Shown here piece by piece: positions 15,827 through 50,976 of a stretch of 64,000 nucleotides of DNA (the first letter of the stretch is position 1; each line of letters opens with the position of its first letter). The notes under the pieces are model-generated. The model was not told the origin of the DNA, ran no database searches, and saw only the letters and a list, made by a program, of their open reading frames with translations. The position numbers were made by a program, and so were the translations under genes. Source of the stretch: Escherichia coli (lineage in GTDB: Bacteria > Pseudomonadota > Gammaproteobacteria > Enterobacterales > Enterobacteriaceae); assembly GCA_025336685.1 (NCBI GenBank), contig GCA_025336685.1_4717.1; one strand, given 5' to 3'.

Positions 15827-16665
15827 GCTGGGTTACCTTTTAGTTTTCCACGTATCATGTCGACAACGCGTGAGGGATCAGAAATAACATTGGCGATAAG
15901 ATGATCGATAGGTAGGTCGAGAACGATTTTCTTCAGCTGGAAAGCCGTATCTTTACGACGCACGCCGTAGAACACGCCATCTTTAAACACAACCTCGTAC
16001 GAAATGGGGAGCTGGCTAATAACCGTGTTAGCGTAATCACCCAACCACATCGACCCCGCCATCAGATGCGCACAAACCGCATGACTAATACGCACATCTT
16101 TGTTCTTCCGGCTAACGTCTTTGGTTTTCGACATGGTAACCAGAAGTTCACCGATCTTACTCAGCATATCGTCGTATACCCCAAAGAACTTAATCAGTTG
16201 TCGGGCACCTAACGATATATACGTTTCTCGCGGTAAGACACAACACACCTGCGGTAACGTTCCAACCCCATAGACACAACTGTAGGGTGATAATGGGAGC
16301 AAATCAGCAACCGCGTTCTTGATGTTGTTATACTCAACGATATCGTTGAACGGCGAAAGCCCTTTCGTAATCGGTTTATCAATCGCCACATCAAACTCCG
16401 CGAACGTCCATGCTGCTTTACGGGGTTCCCCTTTCTTGTACGGTGGGGCCAGTACCGCAACAACACGAAGTCGATATTCGTGTGTATCGCGTAGCTTAAG
16501 TTGGATACCCTCATCGTCGCCTTCACGCACAAGTGAGTAGCGGCTCGCGCAACCATCACAGGCCACCGTTGGTTCGTGTTGACCGTATGCTGCAAGCATT
16601 GGTTTACTAAGATCTTTATCACAGTGTTTACAATGATGATCCTGTTCCTGATAACTGATTTTCAC
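15823..16665 (-). CDS. hypothetical protein with N-terminal zinc-ribbon-like CxxC..CxxC
   Basis: CKHCDKD...CDGCASR near the N-terminus. Confidence 0.5.
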   Translation of the reverse strand: MKISYQEQDHHCKHCDKDLSKPMLAAYGQHEPTVACDGCASRYSLVREGDDEGIQLKLRDTHEYRLRVVAVLAPPYKKGEPRKAAWTFAEFDVAIDKPITKGLSPFNDIVEYNNIKNAVADLLPLSPYSCVYGVGTLPQVCCVLPRETYISLGARQLIKFFGVYDDMLSKIGELLVTMSKTKDVSRKNKDVRISHAVCAHLMAGSMWLGDYANTVISQLPISYEVVFKDGVFYGVRRKDTAFQLKKIVLDLPIDHLIANVISDPSRVVDMIRGKLKGNPA

Positions 16666-16680
16666 ATCAGGGCTCCTTTG

Positions 16681-17637
16681 TTAATGTAATACGCGATCTA
16701 CTGGAATTGTCGAAGCGTTGCTGGCGGACAGATTCGTTGCTTTACGATCGGGACTGAATCGACGAGCGTTCTCTTCATGGTAGTTAACAGGGTTGTCCTG
16801 TTTCAGCAATTCTATTGCTTCATCAAACGCTAATTCCCTATAACCCTTTGGATATAGGAACAGAGGTTCGTCAATATCCAACCCTTTAACAAACTCATGC
16901 GACAACCAAACGCTACCATCGGCACTGTAAAGAACAGGCTCAACATCATAATCCAAAACGTATTGATACCAGTAATTAAACAGTTGGGCGATCCATCGAT
17001 TACGTAATAAATAATCGATTACGACCGCACTACGCACGCTATGGCACCAGCCGATCTTACCGTCAACTCTCTGTAACAATGTACCGTCATTTGCTTGGTG
17101 GATGACAGCATTAAATAACCAGGCAAGATCGGTTGCGAAAAGTGCCGCTTCTTGAATATCGCTAATGTAGCGCACAGGTATCGTCAGATGAGTGCGGTAA
17201 TGCGCCATCGCTTCTTCGTAGTTGTCTCCTTCGATACAGAGAATACCATTTGACGACAGATGCCCCTGATTCAATGACTGGCTGATATAAAGATCAGCGA
17301 TCGCGTTAATATGTTCGACGGTACCCAAGGTTAATTCGGACATAAAACGATCAACGTCAACAGACATCGATGTACCGGAAATGAACGGATTGGCTGGGCG
17401 AGCCGTATTAGAGAAAATGATCGACCAGATCGCTTCGTGTTTTTCATCCGATGGGACAAACGAAATATGACGTTCTGCACTATTATCATCAACAGATACT
17501 TCTACTGTTTTCAAACAGCTAGTACAAACATAACACGTGTTCGGCAACGGCATATCCGAAAACATATCGTAACGAATTGTCGCAATTGAAATATCGTGTC
17601 CGCAGTGAGGGCATGTGGTATCAATAAGTGTTCTCAT
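16681..17637 (-). CDS. hypothetical protein with N-terminal zinc-ribbon-like CxxC..CxxC
   Basis: CPHCGHD...CYVCTSC near the N-terminus. Confidence 0.5.
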   Translation of the reverse strand: MRTLIDTTCPHCGHDISIATIRYDMFSDMPLPNTCYVCTSCLKTVEVSVDDNSAERHISFVPSDEKHEAIWSIIFSNTARPANPFISGTSMSVDVDRFMSELTLGTVEHINAIADLYISQSLNQGHLSSNGILCIEGDNYEEAMAHYRTHLTIPVRYISDIQEAALFATDLAWLFNAVIHQANDGTLLQRVDGKIGWCHSVRSAVVIDYLLRNRWIAQLFNYWYQYVLDYDVEPVLYSADGSVWLSHEFVKGLDIDEPLFLYPKGYRELAFDEAIELLKQDNPVNYHEENARRFSPDRKATNLSASNASTIPVDRVLH

Positions 17638-17903
17638 TGTTGAATTCCTTTTGATAAGAATAACTGTATATCGGTAAACTGTTCTTTAGGAACATCGTCG
17701 GCAGCCGTTAGAACCTCAGGGCCGTGTTCGTTGAGGTAAGCTTCTCGTTGAAGATGATAAAGTCGATTGGCTTCTTGGAACTCAGTGTCCGTCATGTAAA
17801 CCAACTTAAACTTCGAACGTTTATTCGGATTATATCTCTTATTACGTTTCTTTGGTTTCTTCGCCATAATAGCCTCGTGAAGGTGGATGGGTGTACCATC
17901 CAC
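17634..17903 (-). CDS. hypothetical basic protein
   Basis: 89-aa ORF. Confidence 0.4.
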   Translation of the reverse strand: MDGTPIHLHEAIMAKKPKKRNKRYNPNKRSKFKLVYMTDTEFQEANRLYHLQREAYLNEHGPEVLTAADDVPKEQFTDIQLFLSKGIQQ

Positions 17904-17914
17904 CTTCCTCCATG

Positions 17915-18436
17915 TTAAAGTGCGTTCATTTCTTCAGGTGTGCGTACAGTGCGCGTGTTGGGATCGACCATTGCTGGTACGCCCGCAGGACATTTACGGA
18001 CATCAATCCGCATCTCCGGCTCGATCGGACGAACGCGATACGTTTTACCATCGTCGGTTAACACCGAAATGGTCAACGCTTGGTTCAATTCATTAACGAA
18101 GTTCACCAAACGCTGCTGCCCGCCTGTCGACCAGAAGTTAAGATCGGTTTCTCCGCTGAAATAACTGATTCCTTCGGCGGTCCCAATCGTGATTTTAACG
18201 ATGCCTGGATAGTCACGAAGAAGGGGTGCCTGATAACCTTCATCTTCCGTATCCAATTTTACCCACGCGCCTCCCGTAGACAAGCAGTTAACTTCCAAGG
18301 CGGTTGGCGCACTGACTTCTGCCGATGACCAGGTATACATCGTACCTAGTTTAGCGTGTCCGGTTTCCAGCTCACTGTAATCCCAAGCGTGTGCTGATGC
18401 TGTAATAAAGAGGGCTGCAAGAAACAACTTTTTCAT
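17915..18436 (-). CDS. predicted secreted/periplasmic protein
   Basis: MKKLFLAALFITASAHA-WDY: n-region, hydrophobic core, AxA cleavage motif; RBS AGGAA. Confidence 0.5.
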   Translation of the reverse strand: MKKLFLAALFITASAHAWDYSELETGHAKLGTMYTWSSAEVSAPTALEVNCLSTGGAWVKLDTEDEGYQAPLLRDYPGIVKITIGTAEGISYFSGETDLNFWSTGGQQRLVNFVNELNQALTISVLTDDGKTYRVRPIEPEMRIDVRKCPAGVPAMVDPNTRTVRTPEEMNAL

Positions 18437-18491
18437 TCTTTTCGATTCCTATTAAAAGTGACCGATTTCTGTGGTCAGGATTGCTAATACA

Positions 18492-18926
18492 TTAAATCCG
18501 GTTTTGTTTCCGTATTGCACGGTTACGTTTACGTTCTTGGTCTTTGACAGTACCAAGAAACTTCCTTAATTCTGACGGTTGGAGCGTACCCTCACGTACC
18601 ACGCCGTTTTGTTCGATATGGTAAGACCAATAACCAACTTCAGCTGTTAAAGATAACGTTGTTGGTTGCACGTCGGGCAGCGATCGAGGTGAGAAAATAA
18701 AGAGTAATTCAAAAGGCGTTTCTCGGCTGATGGTGGGACGGATACTAACGTCAAGCCCCTCCCATCGCTGCGGCTTAAATATTCCTCCAGCGGCGACGAT
18801 TGTCTCCGAGCGTTGGTCTACAAGCTCAGCTAATTCACGATCGTCATTGAAATAAATATCGTGAAGGATATCTGTGTCGATAAAAAACCCGCGATCGGAA
18901 TCGTGACGAACAATTGAATTCTTCAT
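18492..18926 (-). CDS. hypothetical protein
   Basis: ORF 18492..18953; second ATG at 18926 has better RBS spacing. Confidence 0.4.
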   Translation of the reverse strand: MKNSIVRHDSDRGFFIDTDILHDIYFNDDRELAELVDQRSETIVAAGGIFKPQRWEGLDVSIRPTISRETPFELLFIFSPRSLPDVQPTTLSLTAEVGYWSYHIEQNGVVREGTLQPSELRKFLGTVKDQERKRNRAIRKQNRI

Positions 18927-19000
18927 TCTAACGCCTTTGTTGTTTGTTTTCATGTCCTATACGAACACGAAAAACCGTTAATTTTTACCTTGGTTGCGTG

Positions 19001-19288
19001 TTAAAATTCCACACCGCGACCGGTCATCGACGAAGGAACCGTGCGATAATAGAAGTAGATGTAATGGTCGCGATGGCTAAAATAGTTTTTGCAAGCATAG
19101 AACTCTCCAGATCCAATGAATGATTTAATACGTGTGACTTGAGGGTGTCGTTCGATTAGCGCTCGTAGGACGATTTCCATTTGGTGTGCGCTCAAGCCTG
19201 GTCGAGCTGCGACATGATAATGAAGCTCCTTAAGAAATCGTTTCCAGGGTTCGGGTTGTGTCGACGATCGAGACATCGTTATCTCCAT
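19001..19288 (-). CDS. hypothetical protein
   Basis: 95-aa ORF, RBS GGAG. Confidence 0.45.
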   Translation of the reverse strand: MEITMSRSSTQPEPWKRFLKELHYHVAARPGLSAHQMEIVLRALIERHPQVTRIKSFIGSGEFYACKNYFSHRDHYIYFYYRTVPSSMTGRGVEF

Positions 19289-19314
19289 AGCAGGTACCGG
19301 TAACGCGGCATAAA

Positions 19315-19332
19315 CCCTCCCCGAAGGGAGGG
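19315..19332 (-). terminator. hairpin CCCTCCC-CGAA-GGGAGGG (UUCG loop on RNA) followed by UUUAUGCCG
   Basis: Perfect 7-bp stem, tetraloop, U-rich tail. Confidence 0.55.
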
Positions 19333-19342
19333 CGGTTAATGA

Positions 19343-19900
19343 TTACTCCATCCATACTTCTTCGTCGTAATGATTTTCTATCGCATTACGCCAAAAACGT
19401 ACGGTGTCCAAACTAATCGGTGCGTAAAAGTGTTGGTCAACGCCTACATTAAGTCCGTTGGCCTTCGCTAACATACAGCGATGAATGTGCCCGAATAGAT
19501 TGAAGTAGCCTGGGTTTCTTTCGCTGGGCTTATGGCATAGCCAGTAGGATTCGTCATTGCTAATCGGCAATACCAGCGGATGTTCATAAACAGCAGCAAA
19601 CCCCATACCGAGCAGTTTATCACGCCACGCGTCGAAGCTTAATCCTGTCGCTTTGTATGCGTCTTCGTCCCAATTCCCCATTACCAATTGAACCTGGATA
19701 TCAGAACGAATGGCTTCCACGAACTCGAACTTACCCCAATCACCTAAATGCCACAACACACTGTTCTTTGGAAGATTGTTGATGGCTTTCAGCATATGCT
19801 GGTTCATATCGGCGACGCTTGCGAACGGACGGCGTGAATACGTCCATGTACGCTCGCTATCAAAATGGGTATCCGATATAAAGAAGATGGGTGAGGTCAT
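19343..19900 (-). CDS. calcineurin-like metallophosphoesterase
   Basis: Motifs ISDTHF, GDWG, GNWD, GHIH. Confidence 0.7.
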   Translation of the reverse strand: MTSPIFFISDTHFDSERTWTYSRRPFASVADMNQHMLKAINNLPKNSVLWHLGDWGKFEFVEAIRSDIQVQLVMGNWDEDAYKATGLSFDAWRDKLLGMGFAAVYEHPLVLPISNDESYWLCHKPSERNPGYFNLFGHIHRCMLAKANGLNVGVDQHFYAPISLDTVRFWRNAIENHYDEEVWME

Positions 19901-20379
19901 CGATTTAATTGCTCCAGAAATGCACGACCCGATTTACTTGCTTTTAAATGTTGTTCTGCGGAAGTAAGCAGAAGATCGGTTGGTGTGAATGCAGCGCTAC
20001 CTTTCCACGCCGTTTTCAGTTTACCCTTTTCGATACTGAACTGAATCAGTTGTTGGGTACCGAAGTTAAGCGTGTTCGTTGCGGCGCTAAATACACCACC
20101 CATCATGCTGTAACCAAAGACTTTCACATTTTCCGTGTAGAAGTCATTGTCGATCAATTTGTTCTGGAGCTCGAGTTGGTCGGACGGCAGTAATCCCCCA
20201 TCAAAGACACTTAAAATACCAGCCAGGCGATACATACTCACCTTCCCTGCAACGCCCACCACGTAATTGCCATACACGGTTTCTTCCAGTTTAGCAACAA
20301 CGGTGCGATCGTCGGAGGTTTTCATCGAAACCTCAATACCATCACCAACTTCTGTCAACGTTAAATCAACGATACTCAT
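19897..20379 (-). CDS. hypothetical protein
   Basis: 160-aa ORF, ATGA overlap with upstream gene. Confidence 0.45.
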   Translation of the reverse strand: MSIVDLTLTEVGDGIEVSMKTSDDRTVVAKLEETVYGNYVVGVAGKVSMYRLAGILSVFDGGLLPSDQLELQNKLIDNDFYTENVKVFGYSMMGGVFSAATNTLNFGTQQLIQFSIEKGKLKTAWKGSAAFTPTDLLLTSAEQHLKASKSGRAFLEQLNR

Positions 20380-20401
20380 TCATTATTCTCCGCTTTCATG
20401 T

Positions 20402-21088
20402 TTAACACATGATTTCACCATGTTTCTTTTCAACATACGTATAAACGTCATCCAAATAAGCAATGAGTTTATCCCGATTTGCACAAAGCGATTTAATCGC
20501 CGCAATCTCTTTCATATAAAGCTGCTGACCTAACGCCGGATAAGTAATCCAAGCATAGCCGTCAGGCGCAAATTTAGAAATAAGATAATCGGCGGTTTCC
20601 TGTAATGCGAACTCTTTACTCATCTGACCGTAACGATGTTCGATTGCACGGATACCAAAACGTTCACTATCCAGACGACCCATATCCGCCAAACGAAGCA
20701 CCTGAGAAGCAACCGAGCTACGTGGACCGGAGTATGAGGCACGGTGTTCAGCAATAAGTACACGTATCTCCTCGATGTCTTCTGGTGTGAAAATATGTTG
20801 CTCGTTACGAAGCAGGATAACCGCTGCACGAATACCCCCGATGAGGTGGTGGTATGTTCTGTTTTCATGGCATGCAATATCGTGCATAAAAGCGGCAGTT
20901 AATAGACGACGACGTTCCGTGGGTCTGATGATGCCAACCACATCGGCAAGCTCATTTGCCAGTTCAACAACAGCAAGCACATGTTCTTCTTGATGGGCAA
21001 GATCGTTCTTCTGAATATTTTCAATTACTTCAGCGCGAGTTTCCTGAGATAAGAAATTTAAACAATCCAACGAATATAAAGATTTCAT
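20402..21088 (-). CDS. HD-domain phosphohydrolase
   Basis: HEEHVLAVVELA ... FMHDIACHE (H..HD metal-binding pattern). Confidence 0.6.
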   Translation of the reverse strand: MKSLYSLDCLNFLSQETRAEVIENIQKNDLAHQEEHVLAVVELANELADVVGIIRPTERRRLLTAAFMHDIACHENRTYHHLIGGIRAAVILLRNEQHIFTPEDIEEIRVLIAEHRASYSGPRSSVASQVLRLADMGRLDSERFGIRAIEHRYGQMSKEFALQETADYLISKFAPDGYAWITYPALGQQLYMKEIAAIKSLCANRDKLIAYLDDVYTYVEKKHGEIMC

Positions 21089-21136: not shown

Positions 21137-21161
21137 TCACGTAAGTAATATAGCCGTGAAA
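21137..21161 (-). promoter_or_regulatory. conserved promoter-like motif (TATATTAC core), copy 1
   Basis: Plus strand TCACGTAAGTAATATAGCCGTGAAA, 49-73 nt upstream of the HD gene start. Confidence 0.5.
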
Positions 21162-21304
21162 GGATTTGTGTTGGTCCGTTTCGATGCCCATCGTATTTTA
21201 TGGATTGTCGAATGACGTCATTTTAAGGGACATCCCCGACCTCCTCCCCACACCTTTCCAGGGGAGGAGTTTTATCATACTTTTCTATTAATTCGAGCGC
21301 GATT

Positions 21305-30669: not shown

Positions 30670-31035
30670 TTACTCTATGCTGTCTTCTTCAGCACAATCC
30701 TCTTCGGAACCGTCGAACGTTTTCTGCACCGCGGTGGTATCCCAGTTGGCGGCGTAATCAGCCATCGCTTCGCGCAACGCTTCTTCACCAGCATCACCGG
30801 CCAGGTCAAGCACAACCAAACCTTGCGCGACGTTTTGAGCGACTGTATCAATAACGGTTGCATCTTCTTCAAAACTACGTACCGGTTCAATGGTGCCTAC
30901 ATCAACAGCATAGTTCGTGGTCGCTGTAAGCACGGCGACTTGTAGCGCATCGCTATTATCATCATCATGCAATGCTGCTTCAATACCGATTGGACGGGCC
31001 AGTTCTTGCAGTGTTAATTTGCGAATTAAGTTCAT
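30670..31035 (-). CDS. small acidic protein
   Basis: 121-aa ORF with acidic C-terminus. Confidence 0.45.
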   Translation of the reverse strand: MNLIRKLTLQELARPIGIEAALHDDDNSDALQVAVLTATTNYAVDVGTIEPVRSFEEDATVIDTVAQNVAQGLVVLDLAGDAGEEALREAMADYAANWDTTAVQKTFDGSEEDCAEEDSIE

Positions 31036-31068
31036 TATGTTTTTCCTCAGGTGAATGTTAGCGATCGT

Positions 31069-31416
31069 TTAAAACTTTAAAACTTTTTCGATACGATGGT
31101 TGACAAGTTCATTGAACGATTCTTCAACTTGTTCAATAATTTCATCAACGTCGATATCTAATTGTTGGGGTTGGATAACATGCTCTTTCATGGTTTCTAG
31201 CCAGTATTCGGCTTTAACCATAACGTTAGCTACTTGTTCAACCTGACTACGTATGTCGACGATCTGACAGTCAGGATTTTTAATGTCGATGATGTGTCCA
31301 TGATGATTGATAAAACCTAGCTTATTCGTTGCTTTTACTGCATCGCGGGCAAGTTCTTGCAGGATTAAATTATTTACGTAGTTCACTGCTATGGAACGAT
31401 TTTCTTTATCACTCAT
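31069..31416 (-). CDS. small acidic protein
   Basis: 115-aa ORF; shares an LxLQELAR segment with the 30670..31035 product. Confidence 0.45.
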   Translation of the reverse strand: MSDKENRSIAVNYVNNLILQELARDAVKATNKLGFINHHGHIIDIKNPDCQIVDIRSQVEQVANVMVKAEYWLETMKEHVIQPQQLDIDVDEIIEQVEESFNELVNHRIEKVLKF

Positions 31417-31495
31417 ACCAGGGATCCTCTTTTTAAGTCTTCACATTCTAGTGTTAAGCAGTTAAAATAAACCGTCCCTTTAATCAGCATAAACA

Positions 31496-31525
31496 TCCTC
31501 CTCCCACCACATGGGTAGGAGGAGG
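31496..31525 (-). terminator. hairpin CCTCCTCC ... GGAGGAGG followed by AUGUUUAUGCUG
   Basis: 8-bp stem; a GTAATATA word sits between the upstream stop and the hairpin. Confidence 0.4.
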
Positions 31526-31536
31526 CGTAATATACA

Positions 31537-31947
31537 TCAGAAAGGAGGACGATCTTTAAATTCTAGCAACGTGTCTTCGAAGCAAGCGATGAGTTCAGAC
31601 TGCAATTCTGTTCGGCCTTGTTCACCGAAAAGTTCCAGCAACATTAACCCCCGAGCGGTCTTCGTAGCAACCTCTTCGCAGATACAGAGATTGTGGACTT
31701 CATCATCGTCAACATCTTTACGTAACTGTGCCGCAATGGGCTTAAGATTGCCGTTTTCATCGTATTCGTCACGAAATGCATCATAAGCCGCATCGATGTT
31801 CGCTATCCGTGTCAATCCTTCAGAATCCCGCCAGTCTCGATATAATCCAAGCAGACGGTTATGATTCTTCGTTTTGATGTTCGGTGCCGGAAGGTTGCGT
31901 AACAGATGTGGTGTAATCCTTGCTATAACGCTATCCGAATGGTCCAT
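31537..31947 (-). CDS. hypothetical acidic protein
   Basis: 136-aa ORF. Confidence 0.45.
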   Translation of the reverse strand: MDHSDSVIARITPHLLRNLPAPNIKTKNHNRLLGLYRDWRDSEGLTRIANIDAAYDAFRDEYDENGNLKPIAAQLRKDVDDDEVHNLCICEEVATKTARGLMLLELFGEQGRTELQSELIACFEDTLLEFKDRPPF

Positions 31948-31958
31948 CGTTTACCTCG

Positions 31959-34127
31959 CTAGCTTTCGCAGTCATCTGCGTCGATGATTTGTCCACCGGC
32001 AACGTTCAGTTGATGATACAGAATCCTCAACGCACGGTTACCACCAATGGGATACTTCTCGAAGTTGGTCGCAATAGGAATCGCTGACGGCTTATCGGTC
32101 GCATAGATGCTTTCAGTGATGCTATCCACCTGTTTTGGATTGTTTGCATAGTCCATAAAGACGCTCGCAAACCACCCACCAGCAAAGGCGGTAACTTCGC
32201 GATGTTCAGATTCACCACAGTAACGAGTTGGTTGCTCTTTACCAGGAGAACTGTACTTATCGCTATTACTGAGTTTCGACGGTAATCCGTGCGCTTGCAG
32301 TTTAGGAATACCCACCGCTGACCAATCGTTCGCCGTCTTCTCCAACATCATGATGTACGTGTCACCGATCGCAATATCGTTCTTGGTTGTCCGCCACTGC
32401 CCAGAACGTCCGCGGTACCGTACAGGACCTTTCTTCAACGGGAACTCACGAATCAGATTCTCCATACGTTCTGAACCCGCTGCGATACTGTCTGTCGGGA
32501 TATAAACTTCCGTACCGTGGCGTTGTACGTACCGTAAATGATCCCATTTATCCTCATCCGTGATACAGTATTTTTCAACAACCTGTTCCACGAACTCAGG
32601 ACTGACGATATAGTAGTAGCGCATCAGTGTGTTCCAAGCGGTCTCCAGATCGCCTGCATCCATCACTGGTTTCAGCTCACGCATGATCTGGTCACCAACA
32701 CCGTTGATGTATGGCGCATTAACACGACTTAAACTCATCCTTTTGATTACCGTGCTATCGTCAAACATAAAGTCCGCAACGTTACCCCATTGGTCAACCG
32801 GCATTTCATCGTCTTCCATGATGTCGGTTACGACGAATTTATCACCCGCCATACCCGTGAATTTAAACCCGATACCTGGAACAACGTCATACGTGTACGT
32901 GATGGTCACACGCCAATCATCGAGATTCTCTTTACGGTAATCGCGGGTTGGTAATACATGACGTAGCTGTCCGTTAGGATTGCGGATATCAATACCGTGT
33001 TCAGCATCAGCCAGGTTCAACCACCACATCACCGTTTGATGATGACGTATCGGCGTACCAACGCGTTCACGTTCGTACTTACGAACAGCATCCTGAATTC
33101 GGGTGTAAAGCAAACCGATTGCGTTTTCATATTTCAGGAATTGACGATACGGAGGACGCATCTTCTCTTCCATCATAATCGCACGCTCGCGGGCTTGACG
33201 TCCAGAACGACGATGTCGATCGCTGACAACATCGATATCCGTTACACGCGCATTCGGTTCAGCGTAAGTGAGATCATCGTAAACATAATCCACGCGCTGA
33301 AGGTTACACGTCATCATGTCAACAACGCTGAGGATAGGATCTATTTCGCGTGTTGCTGCAAGCAACCCATCCTTACGAATGCGCTCACCGTTCTCGGGTA
33401 TTGCTTGGTATACTTCGTCATCACCGTAGAGATTGATTGGGTATCGCGATTTACCTGATGTAATTGTTCGCTTCTCAATACCAGTACTGGTGAAATGCTT
33501 CAATACACCGCGACGGGCAACGCCACCATCTTCAATACACTGGTAGAAGCTACCGAAACACACCTTGCAATCGCGACCGTAACCCCACTCACGTGTTTCT
33601 TGATTGATCGCTGGGCTTTCCATCAAACGAGAATATCGTGGTACGATCTGGCCTCGACGAAGGGAATGGAACAAGTTGGTTGGTCGAAAACGGAAACCGT
33701 ACTGCTGATGCATGATGTGATGCTCGGGCACTTCAAGCAAGCGTAGCTCGTGACGGTTACCATCCTCTTGGTTTTCATACAGCACGTAATGCATCGTGTT
33801 TGTTTTGATGCTGTTTGCTGTATGCCCTGGTTGAAACCGCGGAATGATATCTATGATGCGAGATTCAACTGGAAACTCTACTGACCAAGTGTTTTGTCCG
33901 TACTGGTATTCAATCCCCGTCGTTAGTCGGGACGGCTTCGCATCTTTGATAACCAACGCTTGGCTAAGATGTCCACCAAACATCGCAGCGCGCTGTGCTG
34001 AGTTATAATGCAATAGCCCGTTAAGTCCAGTCCCTACGCCAGTATACTCCTGTTTAATGGGAATGATTTTACCTTCAGCGATTGCCTGCTTCACAGATTC
34101 ATAAAGAGGTTTTTCTTTATAATGCAT
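31959..34127 (-). CDS. multisubunit RNA polymerase beta-like subunit, C-terminal module
   Basis: GDKFVVTDIMEDDEMPVDQWGNVADFMFDDSTVIKRMSLSR parallels beta GDKxAGRHGNKGV..EDMP..G.P.D..LNPLGVPSRMN; GESEHREVTAFAGGW parallels GEMEVWALEAYGA; ATG 34127 (MHYKEKPLY) with AGGAAG RBS instead of track start 34292. Confidence 0.65.
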   Translation of the reverse strand: MHYKEKPLYESVKQAIAEGKIIPIKQEYTGVGTGLNGLLHYNSAQRAAMFGGHLSQALVIKDAKPSRLTTGIEYQYGQNTWSVEFPVESRIIDIIPRFQPGHTANSIKTNTMHYVLYENQEDGNRHELRLLEVPEHHIMHQQYGFRFRPTNLFHSLRRGQIVPRYSRLMESPAINQETREWGYGRDCKVCFGSFYQCIEDGGVARRGVLKHFTSTGIEKRTITSGKSRYPINLYGDDEVYQAIPENGERIRKDGLLAATREIDPILSVVDMMTCNLQRVDYVYDDLTYAEPNARVTDIDVVSDRHRRSGRQARERAIMMEEKMRPPYRQFLKYENAIGLLYTRIQDAVRKYERERVGTPIRHHQTVMWWLNLADAEHGIDIRNPNGQLRHVLPTRDYRKENLDDWRVTITYTYDVVPGIGFKFTGMAGDKFVVTDIMEDDEMPVDQWGNVADFMFDDSTVIKRMSLSRVNAPYINGVGDQIMRELKPVMDAGDLETAWNTLMRYYYIVSPEFVEQVVEKYCITDEDKWDHLRYVQRHGTEVYIPTDSIAAGSERMENLIREFPLKKGPVRYRGRSGQWRTTKNDIAIGDTYIMMLEKTANDWSAVGIPKLQAHGLPSKLSNSDKYSSPGKEQPTRYCGESEHREVTAFAGGWFASVFMDYANNPKQVDSITESIYATDKPSAIPIATNFEKYPIGGNRALRILYHQLNVAGGQIIDADDCES

Positions 34128-43902: not shown

Positions 43903-44367
43903 TTAAACCAATGCTGCGATAACGTCGTTAACATTACGACCACGCAACTCTGCCGCCAAACGAATAACTTCATCCAGGGAACGGTTTGTACGAATCTTAG
44001 CTACTTTCCAATTTTCAGGATACTGTTCGAAGTTAAGTAACCAAGTCATTACCTTTGCTTGTTCCACACCGTTGAGTTTGATTGTCGTGCGTGGATTGGC
44101 TTTGAACCACTTCTTGCTCAGCTGTGCCATACGGCGAACAGGGTAAGCGTAAGCGCGAGTCCAATCTTTGGACAGATTGTCGAGTAACTCACGGTAGCTG
44201 CTATCGTAGTCTTTGTTGATACGACGTAATAACCAGTTGGCGGTCATCTGATAGAGTTTATCATCTTCGCGTAACCGCATCCCTGCTACTGCTAAATAAA
44301 CGATAAGACCTGCACCCATGATGAGAGACAGGATAAACAGAACTTGGGTTTCTTGTGCTAAAGTCAT
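43903..44367 (-). CDS. membrane-anchored protein (N-terminal TM helix)
   Basis: VLFILSLIMGAGLIVYLAVAG hydrophobic segment; promoter-like motif upstream. Confidence 0.45.
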   Translation of the reverse strand: MTLAQETQVLFILSLIMGAGLIVYLAVAGMRLREDDKLYQMTANWLLRRINKDYDSSYRELLDNLSKDWTRAYAYPVRRMAQLSKKWFKANPRTTIKLNGVEQAKVMTWLLNFEQYPENWKVAKIRTNRSLDEVIRLAAELRGRNVNDVIAALV

Positions 44368-44452: not shown

Positions 44453-44479
44453 TCACTTAAGTAATATAGCCGTGAAAAA
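44453..44479 (-). promoter_or_regulatory. conserved promoter-like motif (TATATTAC core), copy 3
   Basis: Plus strand TCACTTAAGTAATATAGCCGTGAAAAA, ~90 nt upstream of start 44367. Confidence 0.5.
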
Positions 44480-50913: not shown

Positions 50914-50976
50914 TTGGGATTCCTCTTTTCTTAACCTTTATTAAATGACGTCATTGAATCAGCTTCTACTCGCTCA

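Follow-up and report, generated by a model that had tools for sequence, protein, structure and literature searches.

A conserved gene of Goslar-like nucleus-forming jumbo phages encodes a protein predicted to be exported to the periplasm

In this study, we examined a gene in a stretch of 64,000 nucleotides (nt) from Escherichia coli, contig GCA_025336685.1_4717.1. This whole stretch is called the window below, and all coordinates refer to it unless another sequence is named. We call the gene gp154 after its ortholog in Escherichia phage vB_EcoM_Goslar, a nucleus-forming jumbo phage of 237 kb with E. coli as its host. The DNA around gp154 (positions 16000–20500) is 92.7% identical to Goslar, in agreement with a preliminary description, made from the sequence alone, that had placed the gene in a nucleus-forming phage. 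Translation of the open reading frame (ORF) also confirmed its position and the N-terminus reported there, MKKLFLAALFITASAHAWDY / MKKLFLAALFITASAHAWDYSELE. The ORF runs from an ATG start through 173 codons to a stop codon on the minus strand, the strand not having been given before. The gene and the parts of its product are arranged as follows.

17915–18436, minus strand: complete gene including the stop codon, encoding a precursor of 173 amino acids (aa), the ortholog of Goslar gp154 (from the ORF list and translation)
18447–18450, minus strand: Shine-Dalgarno-like AGGA, 10 nt before the ATG, overlapping an in-frame TAG at 18449–18451
18386–18436, minus strand: predicted Sec/signal-peptidase-I signal peptide, codons 1–17 (from a rule test and conservation)
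17918–18385, minus strand: mature domain, codons 18–173, 156 aa, 17.2 kDa, isoelectric point 4.5, predicted to be mostly β
18284–18286, minus strand: TGC codon of Cys-51, the first invariant cysteine and a candidate partner in a periplasmic disulfide
17990–17992, minus strand: TGT codon of Cys-149, the second invariant cysteine (from the sequence and the ortholog alignment)

The AGGA and the stretch upstream of the gene are kept in all nine Goslar-type copies. The in-frame TAG, which lies 15 nt upstream of the ATG, excludes a longer N-terminus.

The comparison of these copies demonstrated that gp154 is a real gene under strong purifying selection. Goslar gp154 (HOV27_gp154, YP_009820839.1, annotated as “hypothetical protein”) has the same length and the same place between gp155 and gp153, and it is 97% identical to the window protein, the difference amounting to five conservative substitutions. 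Further copies with 95–99% identity were found on IMG/VR and metagenome contigs of ~208–249 kb. In comparisons of the window, Goslar, and a relative from IMG/VR, synonymous divergence (dS) reached 0.44 and nonsynonymous divergence (dN) was at most 0.015, with dN/dS values of 0.02–0.035. Of 519 nucleotide sites, 106 are variable among the nine Goslar-type copies, compared with only 11 aa positions, and all replacements are conservative.

Two more distant orthologs, P0003 and P0005, are encoded on uncultured jumbo-phage contigs of 181 and 49 kb (Logan SRR31513740 and SRR33371454) and share 43–44% identity with gp154 over their full length. Across the two lineages, the corresponding values are 38–40% for the HD hydrolase, 50–51% for the metallophosphoesterase, 58% for the helicase, and 24–31% for the other hypothetical neighbors. 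Thus, gp154 is conserved like the neighboring enzymes and far above the other hypothetical proteins of its block, indicating that it is not a fast-evolving ORFan. Beyond these sequences, searches of 5.8 billion protein clusters (with the single sequence and with a profile) and of 1.84 billion representatives returned only the Goslar-type copies and the sister orthologs at 43–44%. A tblastn search of 50,697 phage records found Goslar alone, scans of viral and metagenome contigs with the gp154 alignment recovered only copies with 95–99% identity, and a literature search found no paper that mentions gp154.

One further copy (P0002, 94% identical) is labelled as a Shigella flexneri protein and is located on a 247-kb contig. 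Evidently, the assembly of a Shigella isolate includes the genome of a Goslar-like jumbo phage, be it by host range, carrier state, or contamination. The P0002 gene call starts at an internal TTG and is therefore truncated, with the n-region of the signal peptide missing.

The preliminary description had proposed a textbook signal peptide with an AxA cleavage site, and our in silico analysis supports this through a rule test and through features kept in divergent orthologs. The predicted signal peptide consists of the n-region MKK (net charge +2), the h-core LFLAALFI, and the c-region TASAHA, with a predicted cut at AHA/WD (the slash marks the cleavage site). The core is uncharged, and its mean Kyte-Doolittle hydropathy of 3.14 over 8 residues was the top value among the controls. 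Alanines occupy positions −3 and −1 of the predicted cut (A15-H16-A17/W18), there is no proline at +1, and the early mature region is acidic (WDYSELE). A cut after Ala-17 leaves 156 residues, exactly the mature length put forward earlier. We then applied a strict home-made rule requiring a charged n-region, a hydrophobic core that is free of charges and 8 or more residues long, and small residues at −1 and −3; when calibrated on textbook E. coli signal peptides, it accepted 9 of 12. gp154 obtained the highest score of all sequences tested. Of the other 216 ORFs with 60 aa or more found in the six frames of the window, only one passed, a 63-aa junk ORF, and so did 206 of 20,000 shuffles (~1%) of the first 40 residues of gp154.

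The strongest argument for the predicted export is evolutionary, as the layout is kept in the sister lineage although the signal sequence itself has diverged. The signal peptide of P0003 and P0005, MKHVVKSVIAAALVFSSSAFA/WE, differs in sequence and has the n-region MKHVVK, yet it shows the same n-h-c architecture and the same A-x-A/W junction. The P0003 N-terminus also matched, weakly, the signal peptide of Asr, which is a periplasmic protein. Compared with Goslar, the 51-nt signal-peptide stretch carries six synonymous and no nonsynonymous differences. Among the nine variants, the only changes in the signal peptide are L9F and H16Q (position −2), whereas Ala-15 and Ala-17 are invariant. The rule test indicates, in addition, that the signal-like N-terminus of gp154 is not a chance feature.

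Other kinds of exported or membrane-bound protein were considered and rejected. A lipoprotein or spanin (o-spanins, Cor, Llp, Bor) is not compatible with the absence of cysteine from the first 50 residues, and a lipobox scan did not flag gp154. The n-region MKK contains no arginine and hence no twin-arginine motif, as a substrate of twin-arginine translocation would. The hydrophobic core is too short for a signal anchor or a signal-arrest-release (SAR) domain. Finally, the C-terminus ends with EEMNAL and lacks the terminal aromatic residue of an outer-membrane barrel. Because the core of 8–12 residues is too short for an anchor and gp154 contains neither a second hydrophobic or membrane segment nor a lipobox cysteine, the protein is predicted to be soluble rather than anchored.

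The mature sequence contains exactly two cysteines, Cys-51 and Cys-149, both of which are invariant in all orthologs. Two invariant cysteines fit folding in an oxidizing compartment, and we infer that they form a disulfide. Taken together, the sequence features make it very probable that gp154 is exported to the periplasm, cleaved, and stabilized by one disulfide.

The alternative is that gp154 is not exported. In that case, the hydrophobic N-terminus would form a helix, either buried or associated with a membrane, in a protein of the cytoplasm, the nuclear shell, or a vesicle, and the AxA would be coincidental. The shortness of the signal peptide (17 aa) and the low AlphaFold confidence of residues 1–15 speak for this reading. 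Against it stand the conservation of the n-h-c layout, the A-x-A, and the acidic early mature region in orthologs with 43% identity and their presence in an independent Vibrio family described below. The two invariant cysteines and the rarity with which shuffles (~1%) and other window ORFs (1 of 216) pass the same rule also argue against a nonexported protein, which we consider very unlikely. A related destination is the early-infection (EPI) vesicle of these phages. This vesicle is thought to be derived from the inner membrane (bioRxiv 10.1101/2023.09.20.558163), so that a Sec signal peptide could also deliver gp154 into its lumen, an outcome that we regard as hardly credible.

To obtain a structural model, we ran AlphaFold2 on a shallow five-sequence alignment. 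The usable gp154 model consists of six strands, a helix (residues 106–118), a TISVLT-DDGK-TYRV hairpin, and an extended C-terminal part. In a Foldseek search of the PDB, this model matched no known fold (best E value 0.1, TM-score ≤0.23), and gp154 contains no catalytic motif. Comparisons of gp154 with Pfam, PHROGs, NCBIfam, and PADLOC gave no match, even at E values up to 1–10. gp154 belongs to no described family; phage-encoded exported accessory proteins as such are already known.

Two weak matches were rejected. P0004, a 699-aa protein with four identical CE2_N repeats (phmmer E value 3e-5), proved to be a repeat-summation artifact with an hhalign probability of 0.65%. A PDB profile match to FlgK (E value 0.026) was judged to be due to chance, as it was marginal for a library of 178k sequences and absent from the full-library search. 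It aligned gp154 residues 111–169 (window 17930–18106, comprising the helix, hairpin, and tail) with residues 139–199 of Salmonella FlgK at ~29% identity (PDB entries 2d4y and 9go6). We record it since a second, independent weak flagellar lead, to MotY, arose for the Vibrio counterpart family.

gp154 is located in a long minus-strand block with the order HD hydrolase gp159, gp158, metallophosphoesterase gp157, gp156, gp155, gp154, and gp153. The same block runs on to gp148 and the 3′–5′ exoribonuclease gp147 and, further on, to thymidylate synthase. Among the immediate neighbors of gp154, only the two hydrolases matched Pfam or PHROG families. Within the window, there is no membrane, lysis, or other exported protein near gp154, and the closest membrane-like ORFs are more than 17 kb away.

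This arrangement bears on the possibility that gp154 takes part in lysis timing, whether as an antiholin or sensor of the periplasm comparable to T4 RI or as another accessory of the lysis machinery. A small, soluble protein with a predicted signal peptide would suit such a task, and lysis-inhibition-like behavior and a holin regulator have been proposed for phiKZ (PMC12894885). On the other hand, the phiKZ-type holin has only a small periplasmic domain, and its regulator is cytoplasmic (PMC12894885). Moreover, no holin, endolysin, or spanin-like gene is adjacent to gp154, the nearest membrane-protein genes being those more than 17 kb away; its N-terminus is predicted to be a short cleavable signal peptide rather than a SAR domain; and the gene lies behind an early-type promoter. 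A role in lysis timing is thus very doubtful.

Only two other ORFs in the window have credible membrane-like segments. One, at 43903–44367 on the minus strand, encodes a 154-aa protein with an N-terminal anchor and is located directly behind an early-promoter motif at 44468; the other, at 656–967 on the minus strand, encodes a 103-aa protein with two hydrophobic segments. Both are candidates for lysis or envelope functions.

We next considered when gp154 might be expressed. The sequence elements relevant to this question are listed below.

21137–21161, minus strand: early (virion RNA polymerase) promoter-like motif TTTCACGGCTATATTACTTACGTGA, heading the block from the HD hydrolase to gp154
50993, 44468, 39191, 31534, 29996, and 21152, minus strand: first T of the intergenic TATATTA copies
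24346, plus strand: TATATTA inside a gene
19307–19332, minus strand: perfect GC hairpin of 7 bp (CCCTCCC-TTCG-GGGAGGG) with TTTATGCC after it, three genes upstream of gp154
58433, 54583, 45350, 31525, 30656, 19332, 12898, 11288, and 1027, minus strand: GC-rich hairpin (often CCCTCCC...GGGAGGG) followed by TTTATGCCG
23394, 24964, and 12867, plus strand: GC-rich hairpin followed by TTTATGCCG

The heptamer TATATTA(C) occurs seven times in the window, counting both strands, and the six intergenic regions that contain it all carry it on the minus strand. The extended consensus, TTTCACGGCTATATTACtta.GTGA / TTTCACGGcTATATTACtta.GTGA, is ~21-fold enriched in intergenic regions. It matches the early promoters predicted for phiKZ (TATATTAC) and 201phi2-1 (TTTRARR-BTATATTACDWHDGTG) (PMC7058600, Table 2), and the general principle of phiKZ-type early promoters has been described (PMC7598289). 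The copy upstream of the HD gene is kept in Goslar and in the sister-lineage contigs L004 and L006. The motif could serve to map the early operons of the window phage.

The hairpin at 19332–19307 with its TTTATGCC is likewise kept in Goslar, L004, and L006, and it belongs to a class of hairpins followed by TTTATGCCG that has at least nine copies in the window. The core of the phiKZ late promoter is T(−3)ATG(+1) (PMC7598289), and the published late motif of phiKZ does not include the conserved GCCG that follows the TATG of the hairpin element. From its sequence, the element may be a terminator of a phage RNA polymerase, a TATG-type late start of the nonvirion RNA polymerase, or both. In the sister lineage, an early-like promoter with the variant TACATTAC follows the hairpin and heads a sub-operon with the gp154 ortholog; this promoter is absent from Goslar and the window. 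In L004 (8760–8830) and L006 (8770–8840), the corresponding sequence is TTTTCAAGGCTACATTACTAAGGTGA, with TACATTAC in place of TATATTAC, and it is located after the hairpin and TTTATGCCG, downstream of the metallophosphoesterase gene. Around gp154, we found 9 sigma-70 promoter-like sites (16.3 expected) and 9 intrinsic terminator-like sites (6.9 expected, about the chance level), none of them convincing.

These data bear on the suggestion in the preliminary description that gp154 is an early protein. In its favor, the early-type promoter TTTCACGGCTATATTACTTACGTGA heads the block, and in RNA sequencing of Goslar, 175 of 249 genes were expressed at 5 min (bioRxiv 10.1101/2023.09.20.558163); on the other side, the hairpin with TTTATGCC intervenes between this promoter and gp154. 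Expression of gp154 is probably early or continuous, so that “early” is a plausible but only partly supported description.

A 10-bp palindrome, ATGACGTCAT, was noticed in the same survey. It has exactly two copies in the window, at 21212–21221 and 50945–50954 (0.13 expected; none of 100 shuffles gave two), which lie in the two large divergent intergenic regions with early-promoter motifs. The palindrome may be a regulatory site.

Position and conservation of the gene also invite the hypothesis that gp154 is a periplasmic host-takeover or anti-defense factor. Such a protein might neutralize a host component in the periplasm or exposed on the membrane, for instance a nuclease, a protease, an envelope-stress sensor, or the periplasmic portion of a defense system anchored in the membrane, so that the envelope would stay permissive throughout the long cycle of a jumbo phage. 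This hypothesis draws on the same evidence for export and on the location of gp154 in an accessory and nucleotide-metabolism gene block headed by an early-type promoter. In addition, the moderate, enzyme-like conservation would fit a conserved host target. Nevertheless, gp154 has no similarity to any known inhibitor or anti-defense family, no candidate target was found, and its family is confined to two related phage lineages. We therefore regard a host-takeover role as unlikely.

The only significant fold match of the gp154 model was V9LZ94 of Vibrio phage VP4B, found with Foldseek in BFVD (E value 3.4e-4, probability 1.0). The TM-scores were 0.49 and 0.54, but the root-mean-square deviation was 9.9 Å, and the query was a model with a predicted local distance difference test score (pLDDT) of 73.7 and four poor siblings. 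VP4B is classified in the Gorgonvirinae, which we take to be a subfamily of the nucleus-forming Chimalliviridae. The V9LZ94 gene (L008:33475–33930; VP4B, KC131130) is located beside the genes for dihydrofolate reductase (DHFR) and thymidylate synthase. The annotated start of its product (AGB07144) is probably 15 nt too far downstream, judging from the sequence: an ATG at 33460, preceded by the ribosome-binding site AAGGAGAG, gives MRKSLMIFVLWFVASAANA/AY and would restore a complete signal peptide.

The relatives of V9LZ94 form the family phrog_26799, which is represented in nine distinct Vibrio and Photobacterium jumbo phages, including VP4B, pTD1, Aphrodite1, USC-1, and PDCC-1. All members have a signal peptide with the n-region MRK or MKK and two invariant cysteines. 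As seen above for the Shigella-labelled copy, the gene call from USC-1 (P0011) is truncated, and its n-region is missing. At the sequence level, the PHROG model phrog_26799 did not match gp154, and hhalign of the gp154 family against the Vibrio family gave a probability of 0.9%. Based on the models, a common fold of gp154 and phrog_26799, and perhaps a common ancestry, is slightly favored.

Upstream of the exported protein, VP4B (L008 30715–33427) carries a series of genes, most of them with hydrophobic or membrane segments in their products. An N-terminal membrane segment is present in the products of 30715–31233, 31283–31750, and 31771–32430, followed by a 126-aa gene without a membrane segment (32532–32912) and a fourth gene with hydrophobic segments (32909–33427). 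These genes make up a small membrane/envelope cluster that has no equivalent beside gp154 in Goslar or the window.

The family model of phrog_26799 was more confident (pLDDT 85.5; five models ranging from 67 to 86) and showed the same order of elements as gp154. Its best PDB matches were to MotY, namely 8z5n_B (probability 0.92, E value 0.053, TM-score 0.48) and 2zf8 (probability 0.51, E value 0.19, TM-score 0.43), both below the usual threshold of significance. MotY's N-terminal domain (MotY-N) is periplasmic and wedges between FlgI and FlgT (PMC13626733), and it contains two cysteines, one early and one late. We therefore considered whether gp154 could be a periplasmic docking protein with a MotY-N-like fold that forms one old exported family with phrog_26799. 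By binding to ring- or peptidoglycan-associated machinery, such as the flagellar P-ring region, it would stop motility or block flagellum-dependent or competing phages. The chain of similarity runs from gp154 to its top BFVD match V9LZ94, which is likewise predicted to be exported and agrees with gp154 in the pair of invariant cysteines and in the order of strands, helix, and hairpin, and from the confident Vibrio family model to MotY.

Both links of this chain are weak. The E values to MotY (0.05–0.19) do not reach the usual threshold, and the 50 best PDB matches that Foldseek gave for the gp154 model itself do not include MotY. In hhalign, the gp154 family against MotY-N gave a probability of 0.05% and the Vibrio family against MotY-N no signal (probability <1%), so that all three comparisons remained below 1%. 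Permissive Pfam scans of gp154 and of the Vibrio family returned neither MotY-N nor anything else, and a pair of cysteines is a low-information feature. A T ring of MotX and MotY is not known from E. coli. A MotY-N-like fold in both gp154 and phrog_26799 is, on the strength of these models, unlikely, and the periplasmic docking protein described above is more doubtful still. We give very little credence to the most far-reaching version, in which an ancient Sec-exported, disulfide-bonded, MotY-N-like, ring-docking family of enterobacterial and vibrio nucleus-forming phages would have split into gp154 and phrog_26799. If it were true, the envelope would be reprogrammed, with motility stopped or competing phages excluded, while the genome sits in the phage nucleus.

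We favor an explanation in which gp154 of the Goslar-like nucleus-forming phages is exported by Sec, is soluble in the periplasm, and excludes later-arriving phages. The precursor would be made in the cytoplasm on host ribosomes, and its 17-residue signal peptide (MKK/LFLAALFI/TASAHA) would take it through SecYEG. Signal peptidase I would cut between Ala-17 and Trp-18, after which the acidic, β-rich domain of 156 residues would fold in the periplasm, probably with a DsbA-made Cys-51–Cys-149 disulfide. There, the mature protein most likely acts by binding a conserved envelope or phage component. Binding rather than enzymatic action is suggested by the absence of a catalytic motif and of a known fold together with conservation at the rate of the neighboring enzymes. 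As a consequence of this binding, gp154 could stop phages of the same kind that arrive later at a periplasmic step, either the action of the tail lysin or the passage of the genome.

Several observations count against this explanation. The predicted signal peptide, at 17 residues, is at the short end of the range. A second AxA site overlaps the first (A13-S14-A15/H16, that is ASA/HA, after residue 15), although a cut at 17/18 is favored over 15/16 because the A-x-A/W is kept in orthologs with 43% identity. AlphaFold2 gave one usable gp154 model (pLDDT 73.7, predicted TM-score 0.71) and four poor ones, which amounts to medium confidence, and the hairpin element between the early-like promoter and gp154 leaves the timing uncertain. 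Furthermore, gp154 resembles none of Sp, Imm, Cor, and Llp, nor any family in PADLOC, PHROGs, or Pfam, and the portions of the literature covered by our survey describe no superinfection-exclusion mechanism for jumbo or nucleus-forming phages. The function put forward in the preliminary description, superinfection exclusion or modification of the envelope, is a sensible analogy to T4 Sp and Imm and stays a hypothesis. With these points taken into account, superinfection exclusion from inside the envelope is, by analogy, the single most likely role of gp154, albeit a tentative one. The explanation as a whole, from export to exclusion, is plausible but far from assured.

Studies of nucleus-forming phages have centered on the cytoplasmic side, with the shell, the import of proteins, the tubulin spindle, and the early vesicle as their subjects. 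The portions of the literature surveyed say nothing on the ways in which such phages handle the envelope of the cell once they have entered it. With its strong conservation and its predicted signal peptide, gp154 provides a concrete handle on this question, and it is small and easily cloned. If the exported Vibrio family proves to be related, a conserved envelope-directed function would be indicated for this group of phages. If gp154 is just another accessory periplasmic protein, the value of the present analysis is that the annotation “exported protein” replaces “hypothetical protein.” The interest of gp154 is modest; confirmation of the Vibrio family and of the MotY-like fold, or the finding of an envelope phenotype, would raise it.

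Finally, we compared gp154 with the systems closest to it. Goslar gp154 shows no difference of substance from the window protein, and its record carries no functional annotation. P0003 and P0005 are found in the same setting as in the window (SNF2 helicase, HD, hypothetical protein, metallophosphoesterase, small ORFs, and then the gp154 ortholog). They retain both cysteines, the invariant motifs VNCLSTGGAW, TDDGK, and PAMV.P, and the A-x-A/W junction, whereas their signal sequence is largely different, is 4 residues longer, and ends with AFA/WE. The phrog_26799 proteins resemble gp154 in being encoded by jumbo phages (~236–242 kb), in their predicted cleavable signal peptide, in their similar mature size (137 residues compared with 156 in gp154), in two cysteines at comparable positions, and in the succession of strands, helix, and xDGK/R hairpin, and their genes are located near those for thymidylate synthase and DHFR. 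They differ in the lack of sequence homology to gp154 and in a C-terminus that is helical rather than extended. The MotY N-terminal domain of the Vibrio flagellar T ring is similar to gp154 in its periplasmic location, its size, and its one early and one late cysteine, but gp154 lacks the OmpA-like C-terminal domain of MotY. A disulfide has been reported for MotY. Spackle (Sp) and Imm of T4 are small proteins of a lytic phage that are made during infection, have a signal sequence, and act in the envelope against later phages. gp154 may work in a similar way while being unrelated to them. Comparisons with Pfam, PHROGs, and the PDB revealed no resemblance to Sp or Imm in sequence or fold. In contrast to the β-rich structure with a disulfide that is predicted for gp154, Sp is small and helical.

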